Shown here piece after piece: positions 1,659 through 27,429 of a DNA stretch of 64,000 bases. Every line of letters starts with the position of its first letter. Within the stretch, counting starts at the first letter, position 1. A model generated the notes under the pieces. It ran no database searches, was not told the DNA's origin, and was given only the letters and a program-made list of their open reading frames with translations. The translations under genes and the position numbers were made by a program. This DNA comes from an uncultured Fretibacterium sp. (GTDB taxonomy: Bacteria; Synergistota; Synergistia; Synergistales; Aminobacteriaceae), in NCBI GenBank assembly GCA_946186205.1, contig CAMHMH010000010.1:2777-66776 (forward strand). Direction: 5' to 3'.

Positions 1659-1677
1659 GAACGGAGGAAAAATAATT

Positions 1678-3348
1678 ATGAAGAAAGTCATTAGTATCTC
1701 ATTGGCCGCGCTGATGGTGTTCAGTCTCGTAACTTACGGCAGCACTTCAGCAAAGGCAGAGGAAACACTGAGCGAACTGAAAGCAAGCATAATGTCTCAG
1801 TACGGTGAGAACAAGCAGATCACAGACGGGAATTATGACAAGTCGCTTGCGGTTAAGTGCGTCAATGGTACGTTCGTCGGCAAGAAGGATAACGGAGTCA
1901 TAGCGTATAAGGGGATTCCGTTTGTGGGCAAGCAGCCTGTAGGTGAATACCGCTGGAAAGCTCCTGTTGATTTCGTTCCTGATGATGGAGTCTACGAGGC
2001 GTATTACAACGGGAAAAGCCCCTATCAGATGGAGGCAATCTCAGAAGGCGGTTCTCTTTATGTCCAGGGAGAAGACTGCCTTTATCTGAACGTCTGGAAA
2101 GCGGATGAAGCCTCTGCAGAGAAGAAGCCCGTCATGGTGTGGATACACGGCGGCGGTTATGAATTGGGCGGGACTGTCGATCCAACGTACGATTGCGGCA
2201 ACTTAGTCAGGGAAAACCCCGACATTATAGCCGTTTCCATTGCGTACAGAGTCGGCATATTCGGCTTCTTCCATCTGTCCCACCTTCCTGACGGAAAGGA
2301 TTATCCTGACGCTCAGAACTTGGCAATCATGGATCATATGATGGCGTTAAAGTGGATTCATGAGAATATTGCGGCATTCGGCGGAGATCCTGATAACGTT
2401 ACACTCTTCGGAGAGTCAGCAGGCGGTGAAAGTGTAACAGTGCTTCCGCTGATTGAAGGCTCACACAAGTATTTCAAGCGTGTAATCGCTCAGAGCGGCT
2501 CACCAGTCCTCTCAAGATCAATTGAACAATGCATCGAAACAACAAATGAAGTGATGAAGATTCTCGGCTGCAAAACCGTCGCAGATCTTCAGAAAGTTGA
2601 CGCTAAGAAGATGGTCAAAGCAATGGCCTCGCTCGGAGGAATGTGCGTAGGGCCTGAAAGAGACGGAAAATACTTGACGCTTACACCTTATGAGGATTAC
2701 GCAAAGGGAGCGGCTAAGGATATAGAAATTCTTCAGGGCGTAAACAAGGACGAGCTGAACTACTTCATGGTAGAAGCCGGAGGAGTAGAGCCTTTCACCA
2801 AATGGATAAACAATCGCATAGCAAAGAATTTCACCGTGCTGACGGATGAGGAAAAAGCACTTGTAGAGAGTTTCTGCAATGACATCAAGGGAGAGAGCTA
2901 TGATCCAATCTGCCGACTTTTCGACCAAATCTGGTTTATCGCGCCTATGTTCAGACTGTCAGAGAATCAGGCTCAGGCCGGCGGAAAATCGTACAGTTAT
3001 TACTTCACGGTTGAATCCTCCGTGCCATTGATGAAGAGCGGACATGCTGTAGAACTTTCGACAATCTTCAATCACCCGGAAGATACCCAGTTCACCGGAA
3101 GAGCATTCGATGAGACATTCTCAAAGGTCATGCGCAAGATGTGGGTTCAGTTTGCGAAAACCGGAAATCCCTCACTCAGTGCAGACATCTCACCCGACGG
3201 CAAAGCGTACGAATGGCCGCTGTATGACCTGAAGGACAAGAGCATTATGGTCTTCGATGAGTTCAACATTCACCCGGAAAAAGAATCACAGAGAAAAATT
3301 CTTGACTGGGACAGATGCTATTTCCTGACAAAGTATTTCTGCCTGTAA
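1678..3348 (+). CDS. Carboxylesterase/lipase type B family, secreted (paralog of the previous ORF)
   Basis: 556-aa ORF. GGAGGA Shine-Dalgarno upstream. Signal peptide MKKVISISLAALMVFSL. WIHGGGY and GESAGG motifs. Confidence 0.88.
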   Translation: MKKVISISLAALMVFSLVTYGSTSAKAEETLSELKASIMSQYGENKQITDGNYDKSLAVKCVNGTFVGKKDNGVIAYKGIPFVGKQPVGEYRWKAPVDFVPDDGVYEAYYNGKSPYQMEAISEGGSLYVQGEDCLYLNVWKADEASAEKKPVMVWIHGGGYELGGTVDPTYDCGNLVRENPDIIAVSIAYRVGIFGFFHLSHLPDGKDYPDAQNLAIMDHMMALKWIHENIAAFGGDPDNVTLFGESAGGESVTVLPLIEGSHKYFKRVIAQSGSPVLSRSIEQCIETTNEVMKILGCKTVADLQKVDAKKMVKAMASLGGMCVGPERDGKYLTLTPYEDYAKGAAKDIEILQGVNKDELNYFMVEAGGVEPFTKWINNRIAKNFTVLTDEEKALVESFCNDIKGESYDPICRLFDQIWFIAPMFRLSENQAQAGGKSYSYYFTVESSVPLMKSGHAVELSTIFNHPEDTQFTGRAFDETFSKVMRKMWVQFAKTGNPSLSADISPDGKAYEWPLYDLKDKSIMVFDEFNIHPEKESQRKILDWDRCYFLTKYFCL

Positions 3349-3364
3349 CAGTGTCAGCCGTGTA

Positions 3365-4588
3365 ATGTCAAAAAATTTCACTATGAAAGGAACTACAGTT
3401 AGTACGATGCAGCACAAATCAAAATCACAATCCCGCGCACGTGTCGTTATGGGCGCATTGCTTCTCGTTCTCGCGCTGTCCGTTACGGCGTGCGCAGCTC
3501 CCTTCACAGCTCCGAAAAAACTGGCCGATTACCTCTACTACATGGAATACACCGACTATGTGCCAGACCTCACGACGGGCGAAAATGTCAAAATGGGCTT
3601 CGCTTGCTCGGCAGTCCGCAACGGAAATTTTTACGGCCGCAATTTGGATCTTGATTATGCAGATGTCCCTGAGTTTGTCATCAAGGTTGCAGCAAAAGAA
3701 GGTCGTTACGCAAGCATAGGAATGGCCGCAATCCTCACGCTGAAATCGAATCAGGTCGACAAAGTTTCGGAAGCTGATTTGCTCGCACTGCCAAACATGA
3801 CTTTTGACGGCATTAATGAAAACGGCGTGGCCATGAACAGCAACGTTGCTCCTGCTGTTGATCTGGACTTCGCGACTCTTCTCTCAACCAATTACGGCAA
3901 ACCCCGCATTCATTCTATGGCAGTAGTACGCTACGTTCTCGATCACGCAAAATCCGCCGCGCATGGTGTGGAGCTGCTGAAGAATATGGACATTTACGGC
4001 GGCTATGGCACATGGTGGGGGCTTCACTGGATGCTTTCTGACGAGAAGGAGACTTACATCATCGAGTGCATTGACGGCGAACTTGTCGCGAGAAACGACA
4101 CGGACAACATCATGACGAATTTCTACGTCAACTACGCGCCGAAAACTCTTTACGCAAAGCATATCGCACAGACAGGTCAGAAAGTCGCGGGAAAAATCTA
4201 TGAGGGCTTCCCGATTCTTACGCCTCATGCCTGCGGAGTCGAACGTTACGCCATCCTGAAGGCACATTACGAGGAAGGCGGGAAATCTGCTGATGGAATG
4301 GCTCACTTAATGGAGCGCGTGAAATATACCCAGTCTTATGAAGCTGATACAAATCCTTTCTGGTACACAGAGTATACTGAAGGAAATCTGACAATCGCAC
4401 ACTCTCCGATGGATTTCAAGGCAGATATTCAGTCAAGCATTGAGACATACAAGCTGCACGACAGGAACATTAACCCCAATAACTTCTGGCAGACATGGCA
4501 CACATCGGTTTATGACCTCGCGAACAAGACACTGCGCCTCAACATTCAAGAGGATTACTCAAAGCATTACGACTTCAAATTAGACTAA
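3365..4588 (+). CDS. Choloylglycine hydrolase / linear amide C-N hydrolase (Ntn hydrolase) family protein, secreted
   Basis: 407-aa ORF with an N-terminal hydrophobic segment. GFACSAVRNGNFYGRNLDLDY resembles the Cys-nucleophile and GRNxD signature of bile-salt hydrolase/penicillin V acylase relatives. The exact start is uncertain (alternative ATGs at 3383 and 3407). Confidence 0.65.
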   Translation: MSKNFTMKGTTVSTMQHKSKSQSRARVVMGALLLVLALSVTACAAPFTAPKKLADYLYYMEYTDYVPDLTTGENVKMGFACSAVRNGNFYGRNLDLDYADVPEFVIKVAAKEGRYASIGMAAILTLKSNQVDKVSEADLLALPNMTFDGINENGVAMNSNVAPAVDLDFATLLSTNYGKPRIHSMAVVRYVLDHAKSAAHGVELLKNMDIYGGYGTWWGLHWMLSDEKETYIIECIDGELVARNDTDNIMTNFYVNYAPKTLYAKHIAQTGQKVAGKIYEGFPILTPHACGVERYAILKAHYEEGGKSADGMAHLMERVKYTQSYEADTNPFWYTEYTEGNLTIAHSPMDFKADIQSSIETYKLHDRNINPNNFWQTWHTSVYDLANKTLRLNIQEDYSKHYDFKLD

Positions 4589-4603
4589 CGAAATACATTC
4601 AAT

Positions 4604-4634
4604 GCCTCCTCAAAGACTGAGGGGGTATTTTTTT
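4604..4634 (+). terminator. Rho-independent terminator
   Basis: Hairpin CCTCCTCA-aagac-TGAGGGGG followed by a T8 run just after the stop at 4588. Confidence 0.6.
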
Positions 4635-4697
4635 TGCATTTAATAAGCTCATAACCTATAATCAGCATCAATCTTTTCACAGAAAGGAAGCAAGAAA

Positions 4698-5711
4698 TTG
4701 AACAAGAAAGTTTTTGCATTGGCAGTGATTGCTGTCATGGCCTCAACGTTTGCGGCTTATGCGGAGAATGCTCCCGATTATTCAAAGAAGGAAAGCTGGT
4801 ACAAGCTCCCCGAAATCACAAAGGACGCTGATACGTTCTACATCAACTCAACGTCGTATGTATTCGACAGCCTGAAAGAAGATTCACCCGAATATGCTCC
4901 GCTCGACAATGAAGAAATGTTAGCGCGGTATCCGGAAGAATATTTAGTTCACGCAACTGTGTTCGAGGAATGCACAAATATATTCATGCCGTATTACCGT
5001 CAGGCGGGAATGAGAGTCATGAAAAAATCCTGGCTTGAGACTGGCGATATTGACGCGGCAATTTCAGGAATACCCTACAGCGACATAACAGCCGCGCTTG
5101 ATTACTACTTCACGAACTGCAACAACGGAAGGCCGTTCATCATCGCAGGACACAGCCAAGGGTCAGCACTCGTAAGACTCGTACTCAAAAAATATTTTGC
5201 TGAACATCCCGATTACTACAAACGAATGATCGCCGCTTACGTAATAGGATACTCAGTAACAAAAGATGACCTGAAAAAATTCCCGCATTTGAAGTTTGCG
5301 ACAGGTGAGACTGACACGGGAGTTATCATCAGCTGGAACACAGAAGGCTCAATGAACGTAAAACAAAACGCCTCGAATATTGTAGTACTTCCGGGGGCAA
5401 TCAGCATTAACCCGCTGAACTGGAAGCTCGATGAGACTTACGCACCCGCAAGCGAAAATTTAGGCTCGCTCATTGTGAACGAAAAGGGAGAACACGTAAT
5501 CGCTGACGTAGGAGCAGACGCGCAAATAGTTCTTGCACGCGGTGTTGTGGTAACGAACGCAAAAGCCGACCCAATGCCGGAAGAAGCCGCAAGAATCACA
5601 CTGGAATATTTCGGGCCGGACGTAAGACACGATAACGATTACACGTACTACTACAGCAACATCAAAGCTAACGTAGCAAAACGAATCGCAGCTTACAAGG
5701 CCGGCAAGTAG
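4698..5711 (+). CDS. Alpha/beta-hydrolase, DUF3089-like lipase/esterase, secreted
   Basis: 337-aa ORF with a TTG start 7 nt after GAAAGGAAG. Signal peptide. GHSQGS nucleophile elbow. The DUF3089 assignment is from memory of that family's layout. Confidence 0.55.
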   Translation: MNKKVFALAVIAVMASTFAAYAENAPDYSKKESWYKLPEITKDADTFYINSTSYVFDSLKEDSPEYAPLDNEEMLARYPEEYLVHATVFEECTNIFMPYYRQAGMRVMKKSWLETGDIDAAISGIPYSDITAALDYYFTNCNNGRPFIIAGHSQGSALVRLVLKKYFAEHPDYYKRMIAAYVIGYSVTKDDLKKFPHLKFATGETDTGVIISWNTEGSMNVKQNASNIVVLPGAISINPLNWKLDETYAPASENLGSLIVNEKGEHVIADVGADAQIVLARGVVVTNAKADPMPEEAARITLEYFGPDVRHDNDYTYYYSNIKANVAKRIAAYKAGK

Positions 5712-5738
5712 CAGAAGGAAATCAATCATCACATTAAA

Positions 5739-5777
5739 GCCGTCGCATTCCGTGTGAGTGTGGCGGCATTGTTTTTT
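5739..5777 (+). terminator. Probable Rho-independent terminator
   Basis: GCCGTC...GGCGGC stem (one G-U pair) followed by TTGTTTTTTT. Confidence 0.45.
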
Positions 5778-5913
5778 TGCGGCAATCGAAATCGCAGACT
5801 CTAATTCACAGCCACGAAAATTTTTTATTTCATACTGTATAATTTTTTCTGCAAAGTAAGGTGCGGAGTCGTTGTGCCTGAAAAAAATTTTTTGTATCGG
5901 AGGTATTAATCTC

Positions 5914-8900
5914 ATGCACAAAATTAACGTGAGACTTTCATTGTTGATTTTTGTATTGTCGGTTGTCCTTCAGTGCTCGGGGATTGCACAAGCAGCGCAG
6001 ACATTGAGCAGACAAAAAATCGAAAGACATTGATGACATTGTCAAATCAGTGAACGGAGAACTCGCAATCTCTAAGAAGGGTCTAATCACCATAAGAGGC
6101 GGGAACTACACAACCAGCGGCGGCTTCGATGATAGGGTAGACCGAGGCCAAGCAACAGGCACATATTATGATGTATTCGCCACAGTGTTCAGCAGGGACG
6201 CTACACCCTCTAAAGCCTGCAAGATTTCTTCATATCCAAGATCCGGTTCGTTCGTTAATGATCTTAATAATGGTTTCTTCGATGCGCCTAATTATTTTGC
6301 CCCTGCTGTATCGCGCAGACTGTACAACGGCAAAAGAGCGTTCATGTTCCATAACATAGCTAATAACGGCGAACTCAAGTATTACTTCAAGACACTTTCC
6401 AACACCATAACTTCACATGACAACCGCCAGACACCTGATGAGCGCATGAATTACGTACAGGTTTCGGATTTCGGGGAATATACACCGAAGGCGATCCCAA
6501 GCAGTTATGACATAAAATTTGCCATGCAGGTATATGGAACGGGTGTTATGGAAGTAAAGGGCTATGAGAACGAAATTTTTGTTGTTGCAGTCGGAGGTAA
6601 CCCCACGTGTGGCAGACAAGACAATACGCCTTGAATTTTTCGCTGTCAGTGCTGACAATGCAGGCAATATGACTTTTGTGCCTTTAACGGCATTGACGCA
6701 CGAAACTCCTTTCAGAGATACAGAAGGAGGTGCGAGAATAGTATCATTGGCTGTCGGAGATTTTGACGGCGACAAATACAACAACGAAGTAGCTCTGACG
6801 ATTACCACGGGACAAGAGCTTCGTCTTTTCGTTTACAGGTTGATTGTCTCGGACGGAAGTTTGGCACTGAGGTCTCTGGGTGATCCAAAAGGGATTCTCG
6901 TTCACTCAACAAAGCAGTGGGGCTATGAGCTTGAGAGTCAGCCTGTATCAGATACGGTAGCAGGAGATTTTGACGGAGACGGCACGAGCGAAATTGCTGT
7001 ACTTTTCAAGGACGTATGGAGAGCAGAAAAACTCAAACACCACAAAGGCTGGCCGTAGGGACCCTACTTAGGCAACATACACTGCAAGGTTCAGTTCATA
7101 AGTGGAACGCTGAGACAGGCACTTTCGACACGGCAGAGACCATTAAGGATTACCACGGTGAGAAAGACGACAAAACAACAGCCACAGGAGTTGTAGGACT
7201 GAGGGCAGTTACTGCTGACCTAAACGGAGACGGCATGGACGAAATCGCTACTGTTCTGGTCGGATATTCCCATCGTAAGGATTGGAATGGTGTGGGTATG
7301 AGAGATACTGAGTTTTGTGTTTACCCTCATCTTGCGGTCTGGAAATTTGATAAGGGAATAACGCCAATTCATGATGACGCTCACGTGAAGGGTGGAGTCA
7401 ACACATTTTACAAATACGATTTCGGGCCTCTGTACGACCTCATCAAGGGTCAAAAACCACTTCTCGAAAGGGATCCTATCTTGCGTTTTTGGTCCCACAG
7501 AGACAGTTGGCCGGATGATGGTATTGAGAGAAGAGCCGGTATACCCCCAGAGCTCATACAATATATGTTTGGTCTGCAGTATTTATCAATAGCGGCAGGA
7601 CCTTTCACCGGAACACTCGGCACGTTTAAGACGGTCGATGATATTGCAATAGCGTGGAAATCCGGACAAACCGCTTCGTACCAGAAAGAGAAAGAAGTTT
7701 GGTTTGACACAACAGGTGCTGACTGCGTAACAATCTTCAAGACGAAACTTAAAAGCGACAAGGACGGCAATAAAAGTTTTGACGGTTTCGAGGACGGAAA
7801 ACTTGCACTGCAGGACAAATCTACGGCTAACGACAAGTACATTAGAGCATTCCATGCGGGGACTAGCACATTGCGCGGACTTGTAGCCGTTGACCTTGCC
7901 AGCGAGGGAGTCGAACTCGGCAGACCTGTACACATTCGGAGGGACGCAAACAGAAGTTATATCGCGGCTATCAGCGCAATTCCCTATCACGTTGATACGA
8001 TCAGCATGGACGGAACAGCACTTACTGAACAGCCCATAAACTTCACCTACAGCGATGCTTCTAACGGCGGCAATATGACTGTTACATACGGAGAAACAAC
8101 GACTGATTCTAAATCAAACTCAGTGCAGCAGGATTTGAGCCAGTCAATTGAAACGATGTTTTTGGCCGACCCTCAGGCAAAAGGCGGATCAGCGTTTGAA
8201 AAAGTGAAGGGGCTTATAGGATTTTCGTCTGGAATCGCCGGTTTCATACAAGGTGCGAAAATCGAAAGTATGACTACGGAGCAAAAGCGAGAACTTGTCT
8301 GGCGGCCGGATGCCAGCACCCCCCTGGACTTGCTCGACGGCCTTATGGGGTTCATTTCGGACAGAGTTGACAAGATTAACCAGCTCACTAACGATAACGC
8401 AACAACGACAATGATTGACAAGAACATAATGACAACGACACACGATGCAATTTTTTACACTTCTGCAAAAAGGCATATATGGCGTTATCCCGTTATGACG
8501 AGACCGCTTCCGATGTGGCTTGCTGCCGGCCAAAGAATTGACTCTACGCAAATTCAATACCCTGACACCGTGAGCGGAGACAAGCAGCTTTTCATAACGT
8601 TCACAATGAGCGAAAACTCATCGCTTAACGTGACAACGTCGACAAGTGATTCTGAGTATCAGCCGCTTCATGAGGAGGGCAACTTCTTCTCATATCCGTC
8701 TCGCATTGCAGATGTCGAAGGCTATAATGAGGCGGGAGTTCTTGGAAAGGAGAACAATTGGGACTTCAGCAACGTTTACTACAATACATCAATTACTTTT
8801 GAGAAAGCGTCGGGTGATATGCAGCACACCGAAACGAAAGTTACTCCGAGCGGGTTTACTCAATTTATATCTTTCTTTGAGAGACTCTTCAAAGGGGATA

Positions 8901-15994: not shown

Positions 15995-17062
15995 TTAAAG
16001 TATGTTTGTGTCGATTCCGTATTTCACGAGCAGAGACGCAAAATCAAATCCGTTAATCAGGATTATGCCTTTTTCGGCAGCATATTTTTTTGTTTCGCCG
16101 CTGAACTCCTGAGTCATATTTATGAGAATGTTTATCTGCTTTTCGTATCCTTCTGTCCTGACAAGCTGAAAAGCACCCTCAATATCATTATCATCAATGC
16201 CCCTTTTGTTTTTCGCCTGAACATGTATCACCGGCACAAGCTCCCGTGAAAGTTCCGATGAAAGTTCAGAAATACTTTTAAGAAGCGTATTGTCCGTAAA
16301 CGACTCAAAAACTAAATCAACATCAGCCCCCTGACCGTCATATATATTGCTGTTAATGCATCTGTAACCGCATCTTGTGAAAAGCTCCTCAATGATTCTT
16401 TCAAGCTGTTTGGCTTCCCATCCGTTTATGACCCCGATAATGTTCATCAGGTAATCATTTCTTGCGTCAATAACTTGCTTTGAAGCCGAGAGAACTTCAA
16501 GCGGAGTTTTTACGGCGTGAGTGTCCGAGTCTGTTTTTTTCTCTGCGATGAGGCTTTCAGCTGCTTCGATGAAGTCTTCATTATGGACATTGTTTACTGC
16601 TTTGCGGTATGCCTTGAATTTTGCGCTTACTGTCTTTGAAGAGTCATTGAGGCCGTATGAGAAGCTCCCGATAAGTTCAACGCCTATCATATGACCGAAA
16701 TCATTGCTTTCATCATCCCGGTATCCCTCTGTAGAAATCGGCGCGAACGAATAGCCTTCTGTGCATCTCACAATTGTAAATGTGTTCGCCCATTCGTCAG
16801 ACGTTTCCCAGTCCCCCAGAGGAGAGTCAATATTCAGTTTCGGAATGATGAGAGTATCGCCCGGCTTCATGTCCAGCATAGGACGTATTATCCTGTAGCG
16901 GCGTTCCCCGTCATCGTATGTCCGCGCAAAAATATCTTCCCCGTTCCTGAGATCCGTGCCGTCACAGCCCCATCCCTGACGGAGTACTTTGTGTTCCTGA
17001 AGCTCTTTCTTGATCAGGTCGTAGCAGGCACCGTAATCAATTCTGAAAACGTAAAAGCCCAT
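15995..17062 (-). CDS. Mrr-like PD-(D/E)xK restriction endonuclease domain protein with an uncharacterised N-terminal domain
   Basis: C-terminal GQGADVDLVFES...VIHVQAKNKRG...GIILINGFDFASLLVKYGI matches the Mrr catalytic-core pattern (GxGDxGxD...QxK). ATG at 17062 lies 8 nt after AAAGGAG. Confidence 0.7.
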   Translation of the reverse strand: MGFYVFRIDYGACYDLIKKELQEHKVLRQGWGCDGTDLRNGEDIFARTYDDGERRYRIIRPMLDMKPGDTLIIPKLNIDSPLGDWETSDEWANTFTIVRCTEGYSFAPISTEGYRDDESNDFGHMIGVELIGSFSYGLNDSSKTVSAKFKAYRKAVNNVHNEDFIEAAESLIAEKKTDSDTHAVKTPLEVLSASKQVIDARNDYLMNIIGVINGWEAKQLERIIEELFTRCGYRCINSNIYDGQGADVDLVFESFTDNTLLKSISELSSELSRELVPVIHVQAKNKRGIDDNDIEGAFQLVRTEGYEKQINILINMTQEFSGETKKYAAEKGIILINGFDFASLLVKYGIDTNIL

Positions 17063-17108
17063 ATGATTTTCTCCTTTCATGTATATATTTTTTTTGAAAA
17101 CTTTAATA

Positions 17109-18080
17109 TCATAAACCGTTCAATATTTCCTCAGCGAATCCCTTCACGATCTCTTTCAGCTCTTCAGGCTCAATCACGATCACATGAGGCGCGCCAGACA
17201 TTACCCACCTCGCGAACTCATAGAGATTCGGAACTTCCGCTGACAATATCACGCCTCCTTCTTCGCACTCTTCAACCTTCTGCGACGGATGCCACTTCAC
17301 CTCGCGGAACGTCTGCGCTAATGGCTCTGAGATTCTGACCTTCACGGGAATTTTTTCATGTCCCGGGATAACATGCCACGCCGACAATGTATAGTCCTCC
17401 GTGAATCCTCCGTCTTCAGGCTTCACATACCCTTCATCACTTATTGACGCGCTTATTATCCGGCTGATTCTGTGAATGCTGAGAGTGTCATGCTTGTGAT
17501 TGTACGAGGCCATGTACCACGCATTGCCCCTGAAGTAAAAATCATACGGTGATAACGTCCAGTGCTTTGGCATTTTCCCCGGCGATGAGTAAAGAATGTT
17601 CACGGCTTTCTGCGAGCGTTTTGCCTCAACGAGAGTCCCGAAAATTTTTGCGTCAACTTCCGCGACTGGTATAGCATTGAGAGTCGATCGCGTTATCTCT
17701 GAACCTAGCGACAGAATTTCACCGGGCATATAGTTTCCGAGCTTCTCAAAGAGTGAGCGTGCAGAGTCTTTCAGGTGTGGCAGGAAATGTACGGCCATGT
17801 TCAAGCCCGCGCTCAAAGCTGTAATTTCGCTCTCGGTTATTCGCAGGTTCAAGTGAAATATTCCGGCACTCTCCATTACGTATAACTTGCTGTGAATGTC
17901 GTAGCGTATATCAGCTCCGTATATACCCCTGAGATAATACAGATCATTCTGAAGCGTCCTGTTGCTTCTGTATTCGCCAGCTGAGAATATTTCGTCATGA
18001 GTCGCTCTCACTTTCGACTGAAGGAACGCCATCACCCTCGACAATCTGTCATGACGCACTGAGGTCATATCTTTAGGCAT
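17109..18080 (-). CDS. HTH-WYL-WCX transcriptional regulator (BrxR/CapW/PafBC-like architecture)
   Basis: N-terminal wHTH-like region (RLSRVMAFLQSKVRATHDEIF). WYL-type core (SPYDFYFRGNAWYMASYNHKHDTLSIHRISRI). C-terminal extension. Start is ambiguous: 18080 is preferred because GAAAGG lies 10 nt upstream; 18113 and 18068 are alternatives. Confidence 0.75.
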   Translation of the reverse strand: MPKDMTSVRHDRLSRVMAFLQSKVRATHDEIFSAGEYRSNRTLQNDLYYLRGIYGADIRYDIHSKLYVMESAGIFHLNLRITESEITALSAGLNMAVHFLPHLKDSARSLFEKLGNYMPGEILSLGSEITRSTLNAIPVAEVDAKIFGTLVEAKRSQKAVNILYSSPGKMPKHWTLSPYDFYFRGNAWYMASYNHKHDTLSIHRISRIISASISDEGYVKPEDGGFTEDYTLSAWHVIPGHEKIPVKVRISEPLAQTFREVKWHPSQKVEECEEGGVILSAEVPNLYEFARWVMSGAPHVIVIEPEELKEIVKGFAEEILNGL

Positions 18081-20601
18081 TGAGTCCATACCTTTCACTG
18101 ACCGGCAGAACATACCCGCATGAAGGGCAGTAAGAAGTTCTGCGCTCTAAAATCCTTCCGCATTTCGGGCAGGGCTTTTCATTTCCCGTTACAGGTTCTG
18201 AGTCATTCACCGCGTTTTTGTCCGTCAGCTTTACTCCCAATGAGAGAAGAGCTTTCACCGCTTTAACATTCCCCGCGTCAACAGCAAGACTCATCAAGCC
18301 ATCGTGAATATCAGCTCCAAATTCAGCGAGGACTCCAATCACATTTGAGTCCCATTCGTGATAGTCTGACGTAACAGCGAGCATTGCGGCATTCTGATTG
18401 TGAATGTTGCGGGTGTTAATGTCTGCTCCGTTCTTGACGAGGAATTTTACGGCCTCTGCTTTGTTGAAGAATACAGCGTACATTAACGGCGAATAACCGA
18501 GCCACGTCTTATAGTTGACATTCCCGCCGTGATTGATTGAGTCCTCAATGTCATTCACAGTTCCCCAGCAAGCCGACAATAACATTATCATATCCCAGAA
18601 TCTTACCCATGTTCCGCCGTTGTCTGTTCCCGACTCTATCATCTCCCAAAGATGACTCAGCATATGACAGCTCAGCGGCCCTCCGTAATATTCCTCCCAT
18701 CCGTCATAATGCTGAATGCTTCTGACGTTGGTTATGTCTGCGGGATCATGCTTCCATAAAAATTCGGCTATGAATTTTGCCTGCTGAAAGTTATCAAGCA
18801 TGATACGTTCTCCCCTGTGCGAAAGAAATTCCCCGAACTGCGTATCACGGAGGCTGTGAATATCCGCGCCGTTATTGAGCAGCACATTCATCATTTCTCC
18901 GGGCTGATAGTAGCTATCACATCTTAAGGCGATTTCAGCAAGCGCGCTGTTTGTGTCATAATTCCCGGAAGCAATAACTTTCTTCAGGGCTTCGGGCGAA
19001 TAACAGAGGCATAACGGATTCATTTCCTCAATATCTCTTCGATGACTCCAGTTTTCATTGATGACATACGTTAATTCGGCACCTTCAGGGAGGACTAACG
19101 GCCATGTGATTCCGGCTTCTTTGAGTATTCTTAGAATCTCCGCTCCTTTGTCGAGCCTGCGTTTTATGTCAGTGTGTTGTGGTGAAGGTTTGCTCATGGC
19201 TTCGGGGAAATCGTTAATCCTGAATGCGAGTCCTGCTGACACTCTGAGAAATTCTGACAGGGATTCGCCGTAATCAGGCACAATTTTTTCGGGGGAGATA
19301 CGCTCAATGATTCCTCTTAGGGTCTCGGTGTCATATTCCGCAATCGAATCACAAAAAAGCCGGAGCGCGTGAGATTTGTTTGCTGGGTCAGTCAGAAGAC
19401 TCTTCCAGTTGCGTCGGAAATCTTGATATTCATCGTCAAAGACTTCACGGAGTGTACGAGATTCGGAAGGGTTAATTTTTGCCCCGGCGTTAATCATCAT
19501 GGGCAGGACCTCGCGCAGAAATGTCCGCACTTCTTCCGACTCTGAGAAGAAAGAATCGGCAGAGTTAAACATAATGTCAAGAACGGGTTTTATTCCGCAA
19601 TCGTCAGTAAAGTCCGTGTTCACATTCGCCCCCGCGTCAAGGAATGTGCGAACTATATCCGGGCGGGCGTATATCCATCTTGCGGCATTCGTGAAAGGAG
19701 TCATTCCGTTGTCGGCTGAAGCGTTAATGTCAGCTCCGTTTGCGAGAAGCAACTTCAGGATTTCGTGCGCGTTGTCGGTGTCTTTGCTGAAATCAATCAT
19801 CATAAGCGGTGTATATCCGTCAGTCTCAAGCTCTTTGGGGTTATGTCCCTTGCTGATGAATTGTCTGACAAGCTCAGGAGTTCCGAATCTCAAGCAGGCC
19901 GCAAAGAATGATTTTTCCGTGCCGAGTCTTTTTGTTCGCCCGTCGAGTCCGTTCTCAATCATGGCCGTGATGTTCTCTGCGCTTTCGTTCGCAAAGAGTT
20001 CGCACCAGCTCGTATAACCAGCGTCATACATGAGCGCGAAAATTTTTGCCGTGAATTTTCCGTCCTCGTTTGAATCCCATCTAGTTACAGACTTTACGCC
20101 ATGACCGCAAATTTCTTCTAGTATATTCTCTTCAATCCCCCAAAATGCTTCATGATCGTATTCTGCAAGAGGCACAGACATTATTACGTGTGCCATTTTT
20201 GAGCCGTGAATATCTCCGCACATTTCCGCCGCTTTTCGTATTGCGCTATCTACGTCATCGCCGCTTCCTGAACCGTAATGCACCGTTCCCGCGTTCCTGA
20301 AAATGCCTGCGAGTATTCTTGCGCTGTTGTCTGCAATCTCTGAAATATCTTCCGCGATTCCCTGTGAAATGTCTTCTTCATTCCGTGTGAATATTACAGC
20401 GTCAGCAATATCGGCGAATCTCTTCACGTCATAATTTCCCGCCGGGATTCCTGCTGTTATGATTCCTGACTCCCGCGCTGATTCTGCGAGCGTTATTGCG
20501 TCATTGAGTTTCGACTCTGTTATGCCCGTTATGAGAATGAAATCTGAGTCCTCAAAGTCATTCAGCGTTTCATTTTTCAGAATGTCAACTACTTTTATCA
20601 T
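18073..20601 (-). CDS. Degenerate FtsZ/tubulin-like N-domain fused to multiple ankyrin repeats and a C-terminal zinc ribbon
   Basis: The N-terminal ~170 aa are paralogous to the upstream 221-aa ORF. Ankyrin repeats include LLANGADINASADNGMTPF, LLNNGADIHS and LVKNGADINTRNIHNQNAAMLA. C-terminal CPKCGRILERRTSYCPSCG. Start is at 20601 or 20628. Confidence 0.7.
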   Translation of the reverse strand: MIKVVDILKNETLNDFEDSDFILITGITESKLNDAITLAESARESGIITAGIPAGNYDVKRFADIADAVIFTRNEEDISQGIAEDISEIADNSARILAGIFRNAGTVHYGSGSGDDVDSAIRKAAEMCGDIHGSKMAHVIMSVPLAEYDHEAFWGIEENILEEICGHGVKSVTRWDSNEDGKFTAKIFALMYDAGYTSWCELFANESAENITAMIENGLDGRTKRLGTEKSFFAACLRFGTPELVRQFISKGHNPKELETDGYTPLMMIDFSKDTDNAHEILKLLLANGADINASADNGMTPFTNAARWIYARPDIVRTFLDAGANVNTDFTDDCGIKPVLDIMFNSADSFFSESEEVRTFLREVLPMMINAGAKINPSESRTLREVFDDEYQDFRRNWKSLLTDPANKSHALRLFCDSIAEYDTETLRGIIERISPEKIVPDYGESLSEFLRVSAGLAFRINDFPEAMSKPSPQHTDIKRRLDKGAEILRILKEAGITWPLVLPEGAELTYVINENWSHRRDIEEMNPLCLCYSPEALKKVIASGNYDTNSALAEIALRCDSYYQPGEMMNVLLNNGADIHSLRDTQFGEFLSHRGERIMLDNFQQAKFIAEFLWKHDPADITNVRSIQHYDGWEEYYGGPLSCHMLSHLWEMIESGTDNGGTWVRFWDMIMLLSACWGTVNDIEDSINHGGNVNYKTWLGYSPLMYAVFFNKAEAVKFLVKNGADINTRNIHNQNAAMLAVTSDYHEWDSNVIGVLAEFGADIHDGLMSLAVDAGNVKAVKALLSLGVKLTDKNAVNDSEPVTGNEKPCPKCGRILERRTSYCPSCGYVLPVSERYGLNA

Positions 20602-20608
20602 GATGAGT

Positions 20609-21274
20609 TTACAATTTCCCTTTGTCATTCATGGCCGCGAGAACTGACACTCTCACTTTCTCGCCTAAATCATCATCCATCACATGACCCCAAATCACCT
20701 GCGCTTCAGGGTCTGCTTTCATCTCTATCACGTTTGCCGCGTCTGACATATCTCTTAACATTACTTCCGTTCCTGTTGTTATGTTCACGAGGAATCTTTT
20801 TGCGCCTGAGACATTCCCGCACATTTCGCAGGCGATCTTTGCGGCTGTTCTTGAATCTTCTGCTGTTCCTGCTCCGAAATAAACCGTGCCCGCGTCCCTG
20901 AGTATCTCGTTCACGTCTTCAATGTCGATATTGACGAACCCGGTTTTTGTTACGAGGTCTGAGACTGCCTCAATGATTCTGCGTGAGGAGTCCTCAGTTT
21001 TTCCCGGCGAAAGTATTACAGCGTCAGCAATATCTGAGAGCCTCTTCATGTTCTGGTTCAGCGGATTGATGCTGCCCGATATGCTTCCTGCTGTTACGGA
21101 TTCAGATGCCTTTGCTGACTCTGCGACTCTGATTGCGTCCTTGATGTTTGACTCTGTGATGTTCGTTATGAGTGTGAGACTTGCGTTCTCGGTGAAGCCT
21201 GATCGCCTGAAAGTGTCATGTGTGAATTGAGTCTCTTGATTCCCGGCCATGTCGATAATTTTGAAGTCGTCCAT
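20609..21274 (-). CDS. Degenerate FtsZ-like protein lacking the GGGTG(S/T)G nucleotide-binding signature
   Basis: FVNIDIEDVNEILRDAGTVYFGAGTAEDSRTAAKIACEMC...AKRFLVNITTGTEVMLRDMSDAANVIE...VIWGHVMDDDLGEKVRVSVLAAM parallels the T7-loop to C-terminal domain of FtsZ. The position of the G-box reads LITNITESNIKDAIRVAE. AGGAGGA Shine-Dalgarno upstream. Confidence 0.65.
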   Translation of the reverse strand: MDDFKIIDMAGNQETQFTHDTFRRSGFTENASLTLITNITESNIKDAIRVAESAKASESVTAGSISGSINPLNQNMKRLSDIADAVILSPGKTEDSSRRIIEAVSDLVTKTGFVNIDIEDVNEILRDAGTVYFGAGTAEDSRTAAKIACEMCGNVSGAKRFLVNITTGTEVMLRDMSDAANVIEMKADPEAQVIWGHVMDDDLGEKVRVSVLAAMNDKGKL

Positions 21275-21340
21275 AATGATTCGTCCTCCTGAAATTTTTG
21301 CAGCAATAATACAACGAGGCAGCGAAAAATTAAGGTGCTG

Positions 21341-21411: not shown

Positions 21412-23253
21412 ATGATGATAGGGAATACAGCGAACACCATCAGCATGGCATATAAGAACCTCACAGCCACGAACAAAGCAATGGAGAACACATCACGCGC
21501 GCTTTCAACGGGGCTTCGTGCGGCAACGGCGGCTGATGATGCGGCAGGTTTCGCGATGGGTATAGCTATGTCGGCGCAGGTGGCGGGAGTCGACAGGGCG
21601 ATACGAAACTCACAGGACGGTATATCAATGCTCCAGACAGCAGAAGGAGGACTCAGCCGTATAAACTCGGTGCTTCAGAGAATGAGAGAGCTTGCAGTTC
21701 AGGCGGCGAATGATTCTCTCACTGCCCAGGACAGAAGCTACATACAGGCGGAAATTGACGAACTCGCAAAAGGAGTCGACAGCGCGGCGGCAAGCACTAC
21801 ATTCAACGGAAAAAGGCTGCTTGACGGAAGCTCGACGGCTCAATGGACATCAGACAACGCGGCAACAAGCCTCAAAATCACGGGGGCAATCACGATCACA
21901 GACGAGTACGGCCAGAAGAAAGCCACCGAAGGAAACTACAGAATCGAAATACGCGCAAAGCCGGGGCAGGGCCAGGTTCAGAAAACAAATATCATTGAGC
22001 TTGAGTCACTTGAAGAGACAATCACGACTGAGACAGCACCGAAACGGGACAAGGACGGAAATATTATCACTGACAGCAGCGGGAATCCTGTAGAAGTCAG
22101 CGTTTCAGTTTCAGAGAAGAGGCTTCACCCTGCGACCCTCGAAAAAATAAAATCCTTCACGAACGCAAGCGGAGTATCATACTTCACAGAGCCTCAGACA
22201 ATACGAATAACTCAGGGCGACGGAAAAACCGCAAGCATTGTAGTTTACGGAGGAGATACAGTTTACGATGTCAGGCGGAAGATTAATGATGCGATTGCAG
22301 ATGACTTAGGGCAGGGGAAATATGTCGACAACCGTGAAAACTTCTGCACAATTTCTGACGGGACTCCCCAGACTTCAGAAGCCGTTTCAACAAAGAACCC
22401 TTCACTTACACCCTACAAAGACATGCAGGAGCTTACTTACGAGCGCGACGCTGACGGAAAATTAATACTTGATTCGGACGGTAGGCCAAAGGAAATTTAT
22501 ACCCCCGTGCAGTCTGAAAAGGGAACAATCATAATACGCAGCGCAGTGGCAGGGAAGGCCGGTGAGCTCACATTCAGCTCCGACAATGAATCGCTTATTG
22601 CCGCTCTGGGACTCAATACGATTCAGCAGGCAGAAGAAAATACATTCACCGCATCAGTGTATGACTCTCATACTGGCAAAGTGCTCGCGAAGAACGCCCA
22701 GACAGACGGAAATGTAATCACAGGAATCATTCACCCGAACGCTAATGTAGAGTTCGACAACATGGCAAACGTAAAAGTCTCGTGGTCTGAGACATCAAAA
22801 CGCTACGTAATGGAAGGCGACACATCAGCATATGAGACAACGCTTCACATCAAGGACAACAGCACGGCATTCCAGATCGGGCAGGGGCGCGGAGAAGATA
22901 TATACATCAACATCGGGGACATGAGGCCGGAAGCGCTCGGCATACATTCAGTTGACGTTACTACGAGGGAGAATGCCTCAAGGTCAATCAGCATACTTGA
23001 CGCGGCAATACATAAAGTCAGCGTTCAGCGTTCAAAACTGGGCTCATACCAAAACGAACTGGAGTACAACACGAACAGCCTAACGGAGACGAGCTTCCAG
23101 TTGCAAAACTCGGAGAGCAGGCTCAAAGATGCTGACATGGCGTTGAAGTACATGGATTTTGTGAAGCTGCAAATTCTGAGTCAGACCGGGAACTCAATGC
23201 TTTCACAGGCGAATCAGAATGCCCAGTCTATAATGAGGGTAATGAATTTCTAG
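21412..23253 (+). CDS. fliC: Flagellin (long form with a large variable central domain)
   Basis: Conserved N-terminal (LSTGLRAATAADDAAGFAMG...SMLQTAEGGL...LQRMRELAVQAAND) and C-terminal (RSKLGSYQNELEYN...ILSQTGNSMLSQANQNAQSIMRVMNF) flagellin domains. AGGAGG Shine-Dalgarno upstream. Confidence 0.95.
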   Translation: MMIGNTANTISMAYKNLTATNKAMENTSRALSTGLRAATAADDAAGFAMGIAMSAQVAGVDRAIRNSQDGISMLQTAEGGLSRINSVLQRMRELAVQAANDSLTAQDRSYIQAEIDELAKGVDSAAASTTFNGKRLLDGSSTAQWTSDNAATSLKITGAITITDEYGQKKATEGNYRIEIRAKPGQGQVQKTNIIELESLEETITTETAPKRDKDGNIITDSSGNPVEVSVSVSEKRLHPATLEKIKSFTNASGVSYFTEPQTIRITQGDGKTASIVVYGGDTVYDVRRKINDAIADDLGQGKYVDNRENFCTISDGTPQTSEAVSTKNPSLTPYKDMQELTYERDADGKLILDSDGRPKEIYTPVQSEKGTIIIRSAVAGKAGELTFSSDNESLIAALGLNTIQQAEENTFTASVYDSHTGKVLAKNAQTDGNVITGIIHPNANVEFDNMANVKVSWSETSKRYVMEGDTSAYETTLHIKDNSTAFQIGQGRGEDIYINIGDMRPEALGIHSVDVTTRENASRSISILDAAIHKVSVQRSKLGSYQNELEYNTNSLTETSFQLQNSESRLKDADMALKYMDFVKLQILSQTGNSMLSQANQNAQSIMRVMNF

Positions 23254-25784: not shown

Positions 25785-27320
25785 GATTTTTTCACCTTCA
25801 CATTAGATTTTCATATTGTTTGCTAAAATACAGCGGCATTATTTTACACGAAAGGCGGCAATTACTAATGGCACAGTACGACAGCTGCACGCCATACGCG
25901 GCGGGAGTCGGCGGCATTGAGTCGGTCAATACACTCTTCCGCAAAGTCTATCAGTAAATGACACTCGGATTAGTCCTCACGTCAATAACAGCGTGGATCA
26001 CAGTAGCAAGCCCGGCAATGATTCGATTCTTCTACGGCTCACGCGCTCCGTTAATCATTGCGGCAATCGCGGAGTTAGGACTCGTGTTTTACCTCAGCGC
26101 GACGATTGCGAAACATGACGCTTCAACATCACTATTGCTTTTCGGACTCTACAGCGTGCTTAACGGCATAACGATTTCATGTGTACTTCTCGTCTACACA
26201 CAGGAGAGCGTATACACGGCGTTTTTGTCGACGGCGGGAATGTTCGGTGCAATGAGCGTGTATGCTATGTACACGAAGCGCGACATTACGACACGGGGAA
26301 GTTTCTTGCTTATGGGACTCTGCGGACTGATTATCGCGATGGTGATTAACATGTTGGTGGGGTCATCGGCGACTGTAACTGTGATAAGTGTGATAGGCAT
26401 AATAATATTCACTGTCTTGACGGCGTATGACACCGCGAAAATAAAATCGCTTGCTGAAGATTCCGACATGAATAATTCAAGAACATAATAATACCCACTC
26501 GTCATTTTGGCTGAGGGGGTAATTTTTTTTTGTGGCTGAATATAATTCTAGTTTCTCAAGCTGTGAACAGACAATCTCTCTTAACCGCTGCGGGTTATTT
26601 CACGGACATCATTTTTCTTCACTGCCGAGATTTTTCACCTTTCACATTAGAATTTCATAATCTCTGCTAGAATATGGCCGTAATATTTTACATGAAAAAG
26701 GGAGATTACATTATGGCACAATACGACAGCTATACGCCATACGCGGCGGGAGTCGGCAGCATTGAGTCGGTCAATACACTTTTCCGCAAAGTCTATCAGT
26801 ATATGGCACTCGGATTAATCCTCACATCATTAACAGCATGGATCACAGTAGCAAGCCCGGCAATGATTCGATTCTTCTACGGCTCACGCGCTCCGTTAAT
26901 CATTGCGGCAATCGCGGAGTTAGGACTCGTGTTTTACCTCAGCGCGACGATTGCGAAACATGACGCTTCAACATCACTATTGCTTTTCGGACTCTACAGT
27001 GTGCTTAACGGGATAACGATTTCATGTGTACTTCTCGTTTACACACAGGAGAGCGTATACACGGCGTTTTTGTCGACGGCGGGAATGTTCAGTGCAATGA
27101 GCCTGTATGCTATGTACACTAAGCGCGACATTACGGCATGGGGAAGTTTCCTTCACATGGGACTCTGGGGACTCATCATTGCGATGGTGATTAATATATT
27201 CTTGGGTTCGTCGACGGCTGAGACAGTCATAAGCGTGATGGGCATCATAATTTTCATGGGCCTGACTGCTTACGACACTGCGAAAATAAAATCAATCGCT
27301 GAAAGCTCCGGCATGAATGA
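25741..27320 (+). repeat. Tandem duplication (~845-bp period) covering the promoter/5' region and most of the BAX-inhibitor-1 gene
   Basis: 25741-26475 aligns with 26584-27320. Long stretches are almost base-identical, for example 25990-26260 against 26835-27105. The ATGs at 25868 and 26713 are 845 nt apart. Confidence 0.85.
25868..26488 (+). pseudogene. BAX inhibitor-1/YccA family gene copy with a premature TAA and a truncated C-terminus
   Basis: Reads MAQYDSCTPYAAGVGGIESVNTLFRKVYQ then TAA (25955-25957), where the intact copy has TAT (Tyr). It also lacks the last TM helix present in copy 2. Confidence 0.75.
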
Positions 27321-27429
27321 TGATGAGGCAATCGGAAAAGTTGCGGTGATCGGCGCGCTTGCGTTGTACTTGGACTTCATCAACCTGTTCTTGTACCTGA
27401 TAAAACTTTTCGGGAAGAGAAGAGACTAG
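26713..27429 (+). CDS. BAX inhibitor-1/YccA family membrane protein (intact copy)
   Basis: 238 aa and 7-TM-like. N-terminus MAQYDSYTPYAAG preceded by AAAAAGGGAG. The C-terminal GALALYLDFINLFLYLIKLFG is typical of the family. Confidence 0.85.
   Translation: MAQYDSYTPYAAGVGSIESVNTLFRKVYQYMALGLILTSLTAWITVASPAMIRFFYGSRAPLIIAAIAELGLVFYLSATIAKHDASTSLLLFGLYSVLNGITISCVLLVYTQESVYTAFLSTAGMFSAMSLYAMYTKRDITAWGSFLHMGLWGLIIAMVINIFLGSSTAETVISVMGIIIFMGLTAYDTAKIKSIAESSGMNDDEAIGKVAVIGALALYLDFINLFLYLIKLFGKRRD

Follow-up and report, generated by a model that had tools for sequence, protein, structure and literature searches.

The window analysed here is a stretch of 64,000 nucleotides (nt) from an uncultured Fretibacterium sp. 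(contig CAMHMH010000010.1 of assembly GCA_946186205.1), and its subject is a four-gene operon whose first two genes derive from ftsZ. The original prediction had read these genes, from the letters of the DNA, as a pseudo-FtsZ, a second pseudo-FtsZ fused to ankyrin repeats and a zinc ribbon, a WYL regulator and an Mrr-like nuclease, which together would make a novel defence or stress module. A check of the open reading frames (ORFs) of the window recovered four co-directional minus-strand ORFs at exactly the predicted coordinates (Table 1), and Pfam matches to FtsZ_C, Ank and zinc ribbon, WYL and WCX, and Mrr_cat agree with all four domain assignments. Gene 2 probably starts at 20601, 7 nt past the stop of gene 1. 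The WYL gene starts at 18080, 4 nt past the stop of gene 2, with MPKDMTS kept in five orthologues, and gene 4 starts at 17062, where MGFYVFRI matches the family consensus and an AAAGGAG ribosome-binding site is present; using this start, the gap between genes 3 and 4 is 46 nt long and A/T-rich. Terminator-like sites are no commoner in the region than in its shuffled versions; no minus-strand gene junction has one, and the sole minus-strand site is a weak 5-base-pair stem within gene 4. A generic scan found no canonical sigma-70 promoter inside the operon above the shuffled background. The operon organization is thus confirmed by its coordinates and junctions. The GC content of the region is 0.455-0.48 and its composition is unremarkable. 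No genuine ftsZ was found in the window, where pFtsZ1, the product of gene 1, is the only match, and no Rfam family of structured RNA reached its gathering score there.

Table 1. Positions in the window of the four genes, their domains and the promoter elements (aa, amino acids; HTH, helix-turn-helix)
Feature	Coordinates	Strand	Description
Gene 1 (pFtsZ1) ORF	20609-21274	-	221 aa; S4 to end of C-terminal subdomain; no linker, no C-terminal peptide
Gene 2 (pFtsZ2-Ank-zinc ribbon) ORF	18073-20628	-	851 aa
pFtsZ2 domain	19984-20601	-	N-terminal ~205-215 aa of gene 2
Ank region of gene 2	18073-19983	-	Pfam Ank_2 5e-24; Ank at aa 243-338 and 691-810
Zinc ribbon of gene 2, CxxC...CxxC	18106-18180 (aa 817-841)	-	Pfam Zn_ribbon_3 4e-5
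Gene 3 (WYL regulator) ORF	17109-18113	-	334 aa
HTH-WYL-WCX regulator (YafY type)	17109-18080	-	323 aa from orthologue-supported start
Gene 4 (EVE-Mrr) ORF	15995-17080	-	361 aa
EVE/YTH-like reader + Mrr_cat PD-(D/E)xK nuclease	15995-17062	-	Variable tail gene
Conserved 16-nt box GCACCTTAATTTTTCG	21323-21338	-	Candidate WYL operator or activator site
-10-like hexamer TATTAT	21306-21311	-	Exactly 11 nt past the box; read from sequence
pFtsZ1 ribosome-binding site AGGAGG	21285-21290	-	Read from sequence; conserved in alignment

pFtsZ1 is a nucleotide-blind, tether-less half of FtsZ that keeps the "bottom" polymer face, i.e. the T7 face. Its only Pfam match is FtsZ_C (3.8e-14), with no match to Tubulin (PF00091), and it scores 66.6 bits against TIGR00065 (ftsZ), below the whole-protein cutoff of 295.2. 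The protein aligns with residues ~167-312 of FtsZ in PDB, and the top Foldseek matches of its AlphaFold model are FtsZ over the whole length (1rq2, E = 4e-11, TMq ~0.6). The residues were compared in alignments that included genuine FtsZ of Synergistaceae and that of E. coli, the motif positions of the latter having been verified by script. Where FtsZ has the tubulin signature GGGTGTG, pFtsZ1 has ITNITESN, and T1-T3, T5, and T6 are absent. Both pFtsZ1 and pFtsZ2 have deletions or substitutions at the equivalents of G20-N24, N43/D45, G71/A72, G105-T110, and N165/D166, so neither protein has the GTP-binding loops T1-T6 of FtsZ, and the label "pseudo-FtsZ" proves apt for both copies. The T7 loop and the C-terminal subdomain are present in pFtsZ1, which retains the equivalents of N207, D209, and D212 (T7 loop, NIDIED) and of the interface leucine L272. 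Both copies stop directly past S10, without the linker and the conserved peptide for membrane anchoring; genuine Synergistaceae FtsZ runs ~100 aa further to ...LYDQPSFYRKNRRD.

The conservation of pFtsZ1 is as asymmetric as its motif content. Over the C-terminal half of genuine Synergistaceae FtsZ, the protein shows ~48-50% identity, and the unusual AQVIWGHV motif is common to both. With approximate boundaries of the structural elements, it shares 65% identity with the lineage FtsZ in T7 and H8, 52-66% in S8-S10, and ~15% in the former GTPase half; the comparison of E. coli FtsZ with the lineage FtsZ gives the reverse pattern. Across 18 sequences 49 columns are invariant, including T7, the AGTVY strand, IWGH, the ITNITESN loop, and the AAMNDK tail. 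The last two elements (aa 36-43 and 213-218) are nearly invariant in the pFtsZ family and absent from genuine FtsZ, and they may form a new binding surface.

The second copy has diverged in a different way. The first ~130 aa of gene 2 are 40% identical to pFtsZ1, and the alignments place a deletion at the T7 loop of pFtsZ2 and the loss of its L272 equivalent. In two related loci, L008 and L064 (we number related loci with an L), pFtsZ2 is a standalone gene. The zinc-ribbon cysteines that follow the ankyrin repeats are kept in six of the eight orthologues examined and are absent in L060 and L073. The PADLOC match of gene 2 to PDC-M72A is confined to the Ank part.

Gene 3 has the winged helix-turn-helix, WYL, and WCX architecture of BrxR/CapW-type regulators. 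Pfam recognizes WYL (4e-10) and WCX (7e-16), and two PADLOC WYL models match at 2.8e-27 and 3.3e-21, with PDLC01457 spanning aa 21-319; the HTH was assigned from the sequence pattern alone. Sequence matches in PDB are weak, the best being CapW (7tb6, E 0.0026), followed by a weak match to BrxR (7t8k) and one to DriD at E 0.78. The orthologues of this regulator, 62-93% identical across at least 10 loci, are tied to the FtsZ-derived genes: all those with enough upstream DNA directly follow pFtsZ or Ank genes, and the loci found by querying metagenomes with the WYL protein only (three of three) also place it behind pFtsZ or Ank genes.

The promoter region of pFtsZ1 contains a conserved 16-nt box, GCACCTTAATTTTTCG, which has a single exact match within the 64-kb window. 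Its family consensus is [GA]CACYTTWNNTTTNCG, and it is conserved in the intergenic alignment even when the left flank differs. There is no TTGACA-like -35 hexamer at 16-18 nt from TATTAT, and a sigma-70 scan found no canonical promoter upstream of pFtsZ1; hence, the box overlaps the -35 position. The composite of box, 11 nt, and TAnnnT occurs 27 times in 1.07 megabases (Mb) of fetched DNA with invariant spacing. All 27 occurrences sit 25-45 nt upstream of a gene of the system, and none lies elsewhere in the 1.07 Mb. In the window (21338-21306), as in every related locus, the composite is upstream of pFtsZ1. L013 and L074 each carry two boxes, one before a unit of AAA+, 208-aa protein, pFtsZ, and PDDEXK_4 genes and the other before WYL or pFtsZ2-Ank-WYL, so that the WYL gene in L013 has its own box and promoter. 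The orphan pFtsZ genes of L014 and L051 have neither WYL nor box. We infer that the WYL protein would bind the 16-nt box, and the layout without a -35 hexamer is compatible with an activator-dependent promoter.

The pFtsZ family is small. A word-indexed search of 5.8 billion proteins gave ~35 pFtsZ clusters, and an exhaustive hidden Markov model (HMM) search of 1.84 billion representatives gave only 24 matches at E<=1e-30, which are proteins of ~210-265 aa or fusions of 340-980 aa. Past those 24, everything that the HMM matched was the C-terminal half of an ordinary FtsZ. Every named member is from a Synergistaceae metagenome-assembled genome and is annotated as "hypothetical" or "ankyrin repeat protein". 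We take the family to be a recent, lineage-specific offshoot of the Synergistaceae host ftsZ because of its identity of ~48-50% to the lineage FtsZ and the AQVIWGHV motif common to the two. Its members form a decay series, from ~261-267-aa forms with a degenerate T1 (GVGRKGCQ) through the 210-230-aa forms of the window type to a 142-aa form consisting of only H7-T7 and the C-terminal subdomain. A phage origin was considered and rejected: tblastn against 50,697 phage records gave matches of ~31-35% identity in the C-terminal half only, some of which fall on genes annotated ftsZ, and a scan of IMG/VR gave no pFtsZ relatives.

Gene neighbourhoods were drawn from contigs in ENA, Logan, and NCBI, from GTDB genomes, and from metagenomes scanned with WYL as the anchor. 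The recurring order is pFtsZ1, pFtsZ2 (Ank-fused or separate), Ank with or without zinc ribbon, an optional PDDEXK_4 nuclease, WYL, and an optional variable tail. The core of pFtsZ(-Ank) and WYL was found in at least five genomic contexts, in Synergistaceae only, so the co-occurrence of FtsZ-like genes with WYL and nuclease genes on which the predicted module depended recurs in other genomes and other contexts. The left flank is flagellin/ALAD in loci of the window type, ALAD without flagellin in L060 and L061, an aldo-keto reductase in L064, an AAA+ ATPase in L013 and L074, and an integrase in L072. A flagellar link was rejected, since flagellin adjoins one sub-clade only, is absent from L060 and L061, and is replaced by other flanks in L064, L013, and L072. 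The minimal system, that of L072, is one T7-intact pFtsZ-Ank fusion and WYL. Hence, the core unit is pFtsZ(-Ank) and WYL with a common promoter box, and the nuclease slots are optional. T7-intact pFtsZ is the one universal element of the system, and the orphan pFtsZ genes suggest that pFtsZ itself is the active principle.

Other genes accompany pFtsZ in relatives and not in the window. One encodes a classical two-domain AAA+ ATPase of 729-764 aa, the AAA part of which is IetA-like, and the other a ~200-aa protein family that has no Pfam or PADLOC match and is duplicated in L014 (L013 7260-9554; L074 1318-3507 and 3504-4091; L014 70-1309; L064 3075-3689, minus strand). The AAA+ unit has its own copy of the promoter box. 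In the window, tblastn at 1e-6 detected no remnants of PDDEXK_4, the AAA+ ATPase, or the 208-aa family. The L072 module (755-6277) directly follows a tyrosine integrase and a 559-aa protein without Pfam match, a neighbourhood which hints that the module can be mobile.

Gene 4 combines a reader domain with an intact PD-(D/E)xK motif, as type IV enzymes do. Its Pfam match is Mrr_cat (1.9e-8), and its AlphaFold model, of high confidence (predicted local distance difference test, pLDDT, 91.6), has an N-terminal EVE/YTH/PUA-like domain. The best Foldseek match of the model is MspJI (4f0p, 1e-5); EVE proteins (2hd9, 2p5d, and 1zce) and YTH domains are also matched. All 32 homologues keep D253, D255, and Q288-x-K290 unchanged, and LRQGWG is likewise a family invariant. 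The reader-domain fold, the fold match to MspJI, and the invariant catalytic residues together give gene 4 the look of a type IV modification-dependent restriction enzyme. A sequence search of PDB gave spurious intein matches only, and no PADLOC or NCBIfam family was matched.

The Mrr-like nuclease had been predicted to be a member of the system, which is not supported as stated. A homologue of gene 4 at the corresponding position is absent from all related loci, and in Firmicutes contigs the family is represented by solitary genes. There the EVE-Mrr gene (L067-L070; 7001-8041 in L067) lies, in one case, right behind a large serine recombinase with transposase fragments alongside, and the contigs are Firmicutes-like by their CotJ and SASP neighbours, which suggests that the family moves as solitary cargo. 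The EVE-Mrr gene is a variable tail, or exchangeable cargo, outside the conserved core. The same slot behind WYL holds a 456-aa protein without Pfam match in L060, a 157-aa protein, an Mrr_cat gene, and a NucS-like gene in L001, and AAA-ATPase_like and PDDEXK_9 in L074; it is empty on the same strand in L013 and L072. A different nuclease, PDDEXK_4, lies inside the operon in many relatives and is absent in the window, L060, and L072. The PDDEXK_4 copies of the L001 and L013 types are only 34-37% identical, which argues that the gene diverged along with the system. As PADLOC single-gene candidates, PDDEXK_4 corresponds to PDC-S26 (6e-62) and the NucS-like gene to PDC-S11 (2e-20); the other PADLOC matches among the accessory genes of relatives are PDC-S02 and the IetA-like AAA. 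The nuclease-free versions, L072 and L060, weaken the predicted scheme of a cytoskeletal sensor that signals to a nuclease effector.

We then estimated dN/dS, the ratio of nonsynonymous (dN) to synonymous (dS) substitution rates, by NG86 between six loci with dS up to 0.8. The values are 0.29-0.46 for pFtsZ1 and 0.24-0.62 for pFtsZ2, compared with 0.08-0.11 for WYL, 0.06-0.11 for ALAD, 0.01-0.07 for GreA, and 0.11-0.14 for flagellin. With ratios well below 1 and homologues for each, the ORFs are genes and not chance reading frames. Judged by these ratios, the pFtsZ genes are clearly functional and under purifying selection, several-fold relaxed in comparison with their neighbours.

Our best, if tentative, reading of the module is a WYL-gated, FtsZ-derived filament capper with accessory nucleases. 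The WYL protein would bind the 16-nt box, sense a nucleic-acid-type ligand arising from DNA damage or phage infection, and activate the operon. The T7 face of pFtsZ1 would dock onto the GTP face of FtsZ, either at the filament end or on monomers. A docked pFtsZ1 would offer the next subunit no face, so that Z-ring assembly would be capped or poisoned and division halted. The pFtsZ2-Ank-zinc ribbon protein would be a partner or scaffold that localizes, buffers, or targets pFtsZ1. The nucleases would be interchangeable add-ons on the same stress-inducible promoter, the add-on being the EVE-Mrr type IV-like enzyme in the window and PDDEXK_4/PDC-S26, the NucS-like protein, or PDDEXK_9 in relatives. 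We favour this reading because pFtsZ1 lost T1-T6 and kept T7 and L272, is conserved asymmetrically, has neither linker nor C-terminal peptide, and has the FtsZ fold, and because the pFtsZ genes are under purifying selection, T7-intact pFtsZ is universal, and the linkage to WYL goes with a -35-less box at fixed spacing. There is precedent for its parts. WYL activators drive division inhibitors, namely didA under DriD (PMC9186387) and aciT under DdaA (PMC13010146). In E. coli, FtsZ interface fragments, the T7 site included, are dominant-negative and inhibit growth (PMC9245647), and overexpression of FtsZ1, a truncated paralogue in A. tumefaciens, blocks division (bioRxiv 10.1101/2025.09.29.679267).

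Several observations count against the capper. The AlphaFold model of pFtsZ1 is of moderate confidence (pLDDT 68.9), and the D209 equivalent is G or N in a few family members. The dN/dS of pFtsZ1 is 4-8 times that of its neighbours, which is unexpected for a fit to the conserved FtsZ surface unless the interface alone is constrained. The box is only weakly dyad-symmetric, and its sequence is not that of the DriD/DdaA target box CGAC-N7-GTCG (PMC13010146). The accessory genes are of defence-island types (PDC-S26, PDC-S11, and type IV-like) and point to phage conflict more than to simple control of DNA damage. Lastly, the capper assigns no explained role to the Ank-zinc-ribbon protein, the AAA+ ATPase, or the 208-aa family.

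The architecture of the module is outside every described system, as the original prediction had supposed. By matching of component HMMs, PADLOC-DB v2 contains no named system that the four proteins or the accessory proteins of relatives match, the matches of the four proteins being to generic WYL and Ank only, and searches of the literature on FtsZ with WYL, ankyrin, defence, decoy, or truncated paralogues turned up no such operon. The proposed novel module thus stands as real, conserved, co-regulated, and undescribed, with a narrower core of pFtsZ(-Ank) and WYL and with the Mrr-like gene moved to the exchangeable part.

Three known WYL systems, DriD/DidA in Caulobacter, DdaA/AciT in Acinetobacter, and PafBC in actinobacteria, tie an HTH-WYL(-WCX) regulator to a division inhibitor, as the module plausibly does, and their target promoters, like that of the window, have a dedicated box and no good -35. 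PafBC, too, switches on division inhibitors, CapW and BrxR switch defence genes, and DidA acts on the late divisome, not on FtsZ. The module differs from these systems in that the similarity of gene 3 to DriD is marginal, the box is not the one bound by DriD and DdaA, and the regulator is encoded inside the operon that it would control. The putative inhibitor would be an FtsZ-derived half-subunit and not a small membrane peptide like DidA. BrxR and CapW, the regulators of BREX and CBASS, share the HTH-WYL-WCX architecture with gene 3, and here, too, nuclease and defence-candidate genes are present in the locus. They usually lie upstream of their system and repress via palindromic operators, whereas the WYL gene here comes third and closes the core, behind pFtsZ and Ank, the box shows weak palindromy at most, and the core genes match no known defence system.

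The pFtsZ proteins can likewise be set beside known FtsZ inhibitors and relatives. MciZ and SulA resemble the proposed mode of pFtsZ1, in which one longitudinal FtsZ interface is occupied and polymers cannot extend, but they are unrelated to FtsZ in sequence, while the inhibitor here would be a natural, genome-encoded FtsZ half presenting the T7 face. FtsZ1 and FtsZ3 of A. tumefaciens (Hyphomicrobiales) are also lineage-specific ftsZ duplications in which a part of the protein is lost. These Hyphomicrobiales proteins were identified as "FtsZ GTPase" sequences and thus keep the GTPase domain, and A. tumefaciens FtsZ1 is without the C-terminal linker and peptide. The Synergistaceae pFtsZ is the opposite of FtsZ1, as its GTP-binding half is destroyed and its T7 loop and C-terminal subdomain are kept, and it belongs to an operon with WYL, Ank, and nuclease genes. 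The distant, old families FtsZl1 and FtsZl2 (PMC2875224), which have links to membrane remodelling and to genes for vWA, GTPase, and OmpA proteins, resemble pFtsZ in being non-canonical within the FtsZ/tubulin superfamily and in having a conserved gene neighbourhood; pFtsZ differs as a recent offshoot of host FtsZ, ~50% identical in the C-terminal half, in another neighbourhood. Gene 4 shares with MspJI and EVE-nuclease type IV enzymes a reader fold and a C-terminal PD-(D/E)xK domain (Mrr_cat). The reader of MspJI is described as SRA-like, whereas that of gene 4 is EVE/YTH-like.

A defence role of the module is plausible because relatives carry PDC-S26 and PDC-S11 and gene 4 resembles a type IV restriction enzyme. 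A refined form of the original prediction, namely an anti-phage system whose FtsZ-derived domains would act as baits or decoys, either by mimicking FtsZ, the target of phage division inhibitors, or by binding phage tubulins, and would signal through the Ank scaffold to nuclease effectors under WYL regulation, is the alternative that survives best, although we consider it rather unlikely. The elevated dN/dS of pFtsZ1 and pFtsZ2 relative to neighbouring genes would fit a decoy, and so would the modular, fast-rearranging architecture with its duplications, fusions, and fissions, the integrase beside L072, and the defence-candidate nucleases that relatives' operons hold or precede, to which the window adds its type IV-like tail. 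Regulators of the WYL/BrxR/CapW type are typical of defence loci, and gene 3 has its weak CapW match. However, the nucleases are dispensable and non-orthologous, PDDEXK_4 being missing from the window and L060 and any nuclease from L072, no named system is matched in PADLOC, and the searches of phage records and IMG/VR revealed neither phage homologues nor phage context. The locus is chromosomal and syntenic, with no obvious mobile island in the window. Moreover, a passive decoy needs no catalytic T7 residues, yet these are retained. The nearest precedent is CapRel(Ebc), which senses the complex of phage Gp0.4 with FtsZ, so that phage-targeted FtsZ serves as an immunity cue (PMC13423816). CapRel has no homology to the module, uses real FtsZ and not a duplicated mimic, and has a tRNA pyrophosphokinase toxin as effector. 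A specific form of "integrated decoy" immunity, in which duplicated, catalytically dead FtsZ copies, one of them fused to an ankyrin scaffold, would bait division-attacking phage proteins and trigger division arrest and/or nucleases under WYL, we regard as quite improbable.

It is similarly improbable that the genes are coincidental neighbours, with pFtsZ1 and pFtsZ2-Ank serving as a division or shape accessory and WYL with the tail nuclease as a separate defence cassette. The tail behind WYL does vary like a defence hot spot among the window, L060, L001, and L074, the WYL gene of L013 has its own box and promoter, and orphan pFtsZ genes exist without WYL. Against this separation, the same 16-nt box precedes pFtsZ1, the AAA+ unit, the pFtsZ2-Ank-WYL unit, and WYL itself, and no WYL orthologue with enough upstream DNA was found to lack an upstream pFtsZ or Ank gene across at least five flanking contexts and the WYL-anchored scan. 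In addition, the junctions are 4-7 nt, and L013 and L072 have nothing on the same strand behind WYL. That the pFtsZ genes are decaying remnants of an ftsZ duplication, i.e. non-functional pseudogenes, is hardly credible: all GTPase motifs are lost, the N-terminus is eroded stepwise from ~261-267 through 210-230 to 142 aa, and gene 2 is split or frameshifted in some loci, but dN/dS stays at 0.24-0.62 over dS up to 0.8 with reading frames intact, the 49 invariant columns include the new ITNITESN loop and AAMNDK tail, and the promoter box and ribosome-binding site are conserved.

Few bacterial proteins have been studied as closely as FtsZ. A half FtsZ that occurs naturally, is conserved with only its T7-loop face kept, and is governed by a dedicated sensor-regulator would add a new route by which the Z-ring is controlled or exploited. 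If pFtsZ1 caps FtsZ, it would be a genetically encoded capper with a defined interface, of use for studying filament polarity and treadmilling and as an inhibitor template. If pFtsZ instead baits phage division inhibitors, the effector-triggered immunity exemplified by CapRel, Gp0.4, and FtsZ would extend to dedicated decoy proteins. An integrated decoy, if true, would be the first case of an immune sensor derived from a mimic of a cytoskeletal protein, and the integrated decoys in plant NLR receptors would be its analogue. The WYL family gains a new type of regulon and a well-defined candidate operator. The generality of these points is limited to uncultured rumen and gut Synergistaceae, to which the family is confined.

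In the window, one flank of the operon holds an RND efflux pair with a YitT-like gene, and the other a divergent flagellin gene, followed by ALAD, epimerase, and GreA. The flagellin gene (21412-23253, plus strand) has a hypervariable middle. Between the window and L001, the amino-acid identity is 80% for flagellin and 94% for the neighbouring ALAD. The flagellin is 887 aa long in L051 (3638-6301) and absent between ALAD and pFtsZ1 in L060 and L061; the boundary between flagellin and operon is an indel hot spot. A 215-aa ORF antisense to the junction of gene 4 and WYL (16691-17338, plus strand) is of low complexity and rich in Arg and Pro, and is most likely a shadow ORF and not a gene. Further along, two tandem membrane-protein genes (25958-26488 and 26674-27429, plus strand) share the repeat TCACTATTGCTTTTCGGACTCTACAG at 26129 and 26974. 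At their position, syntenic loci have two to three ORFs annotated as Bax1-I (BI-1/YccA-like), some of them split, and the pair at 25958-27429 looks like a local tandem duplication.

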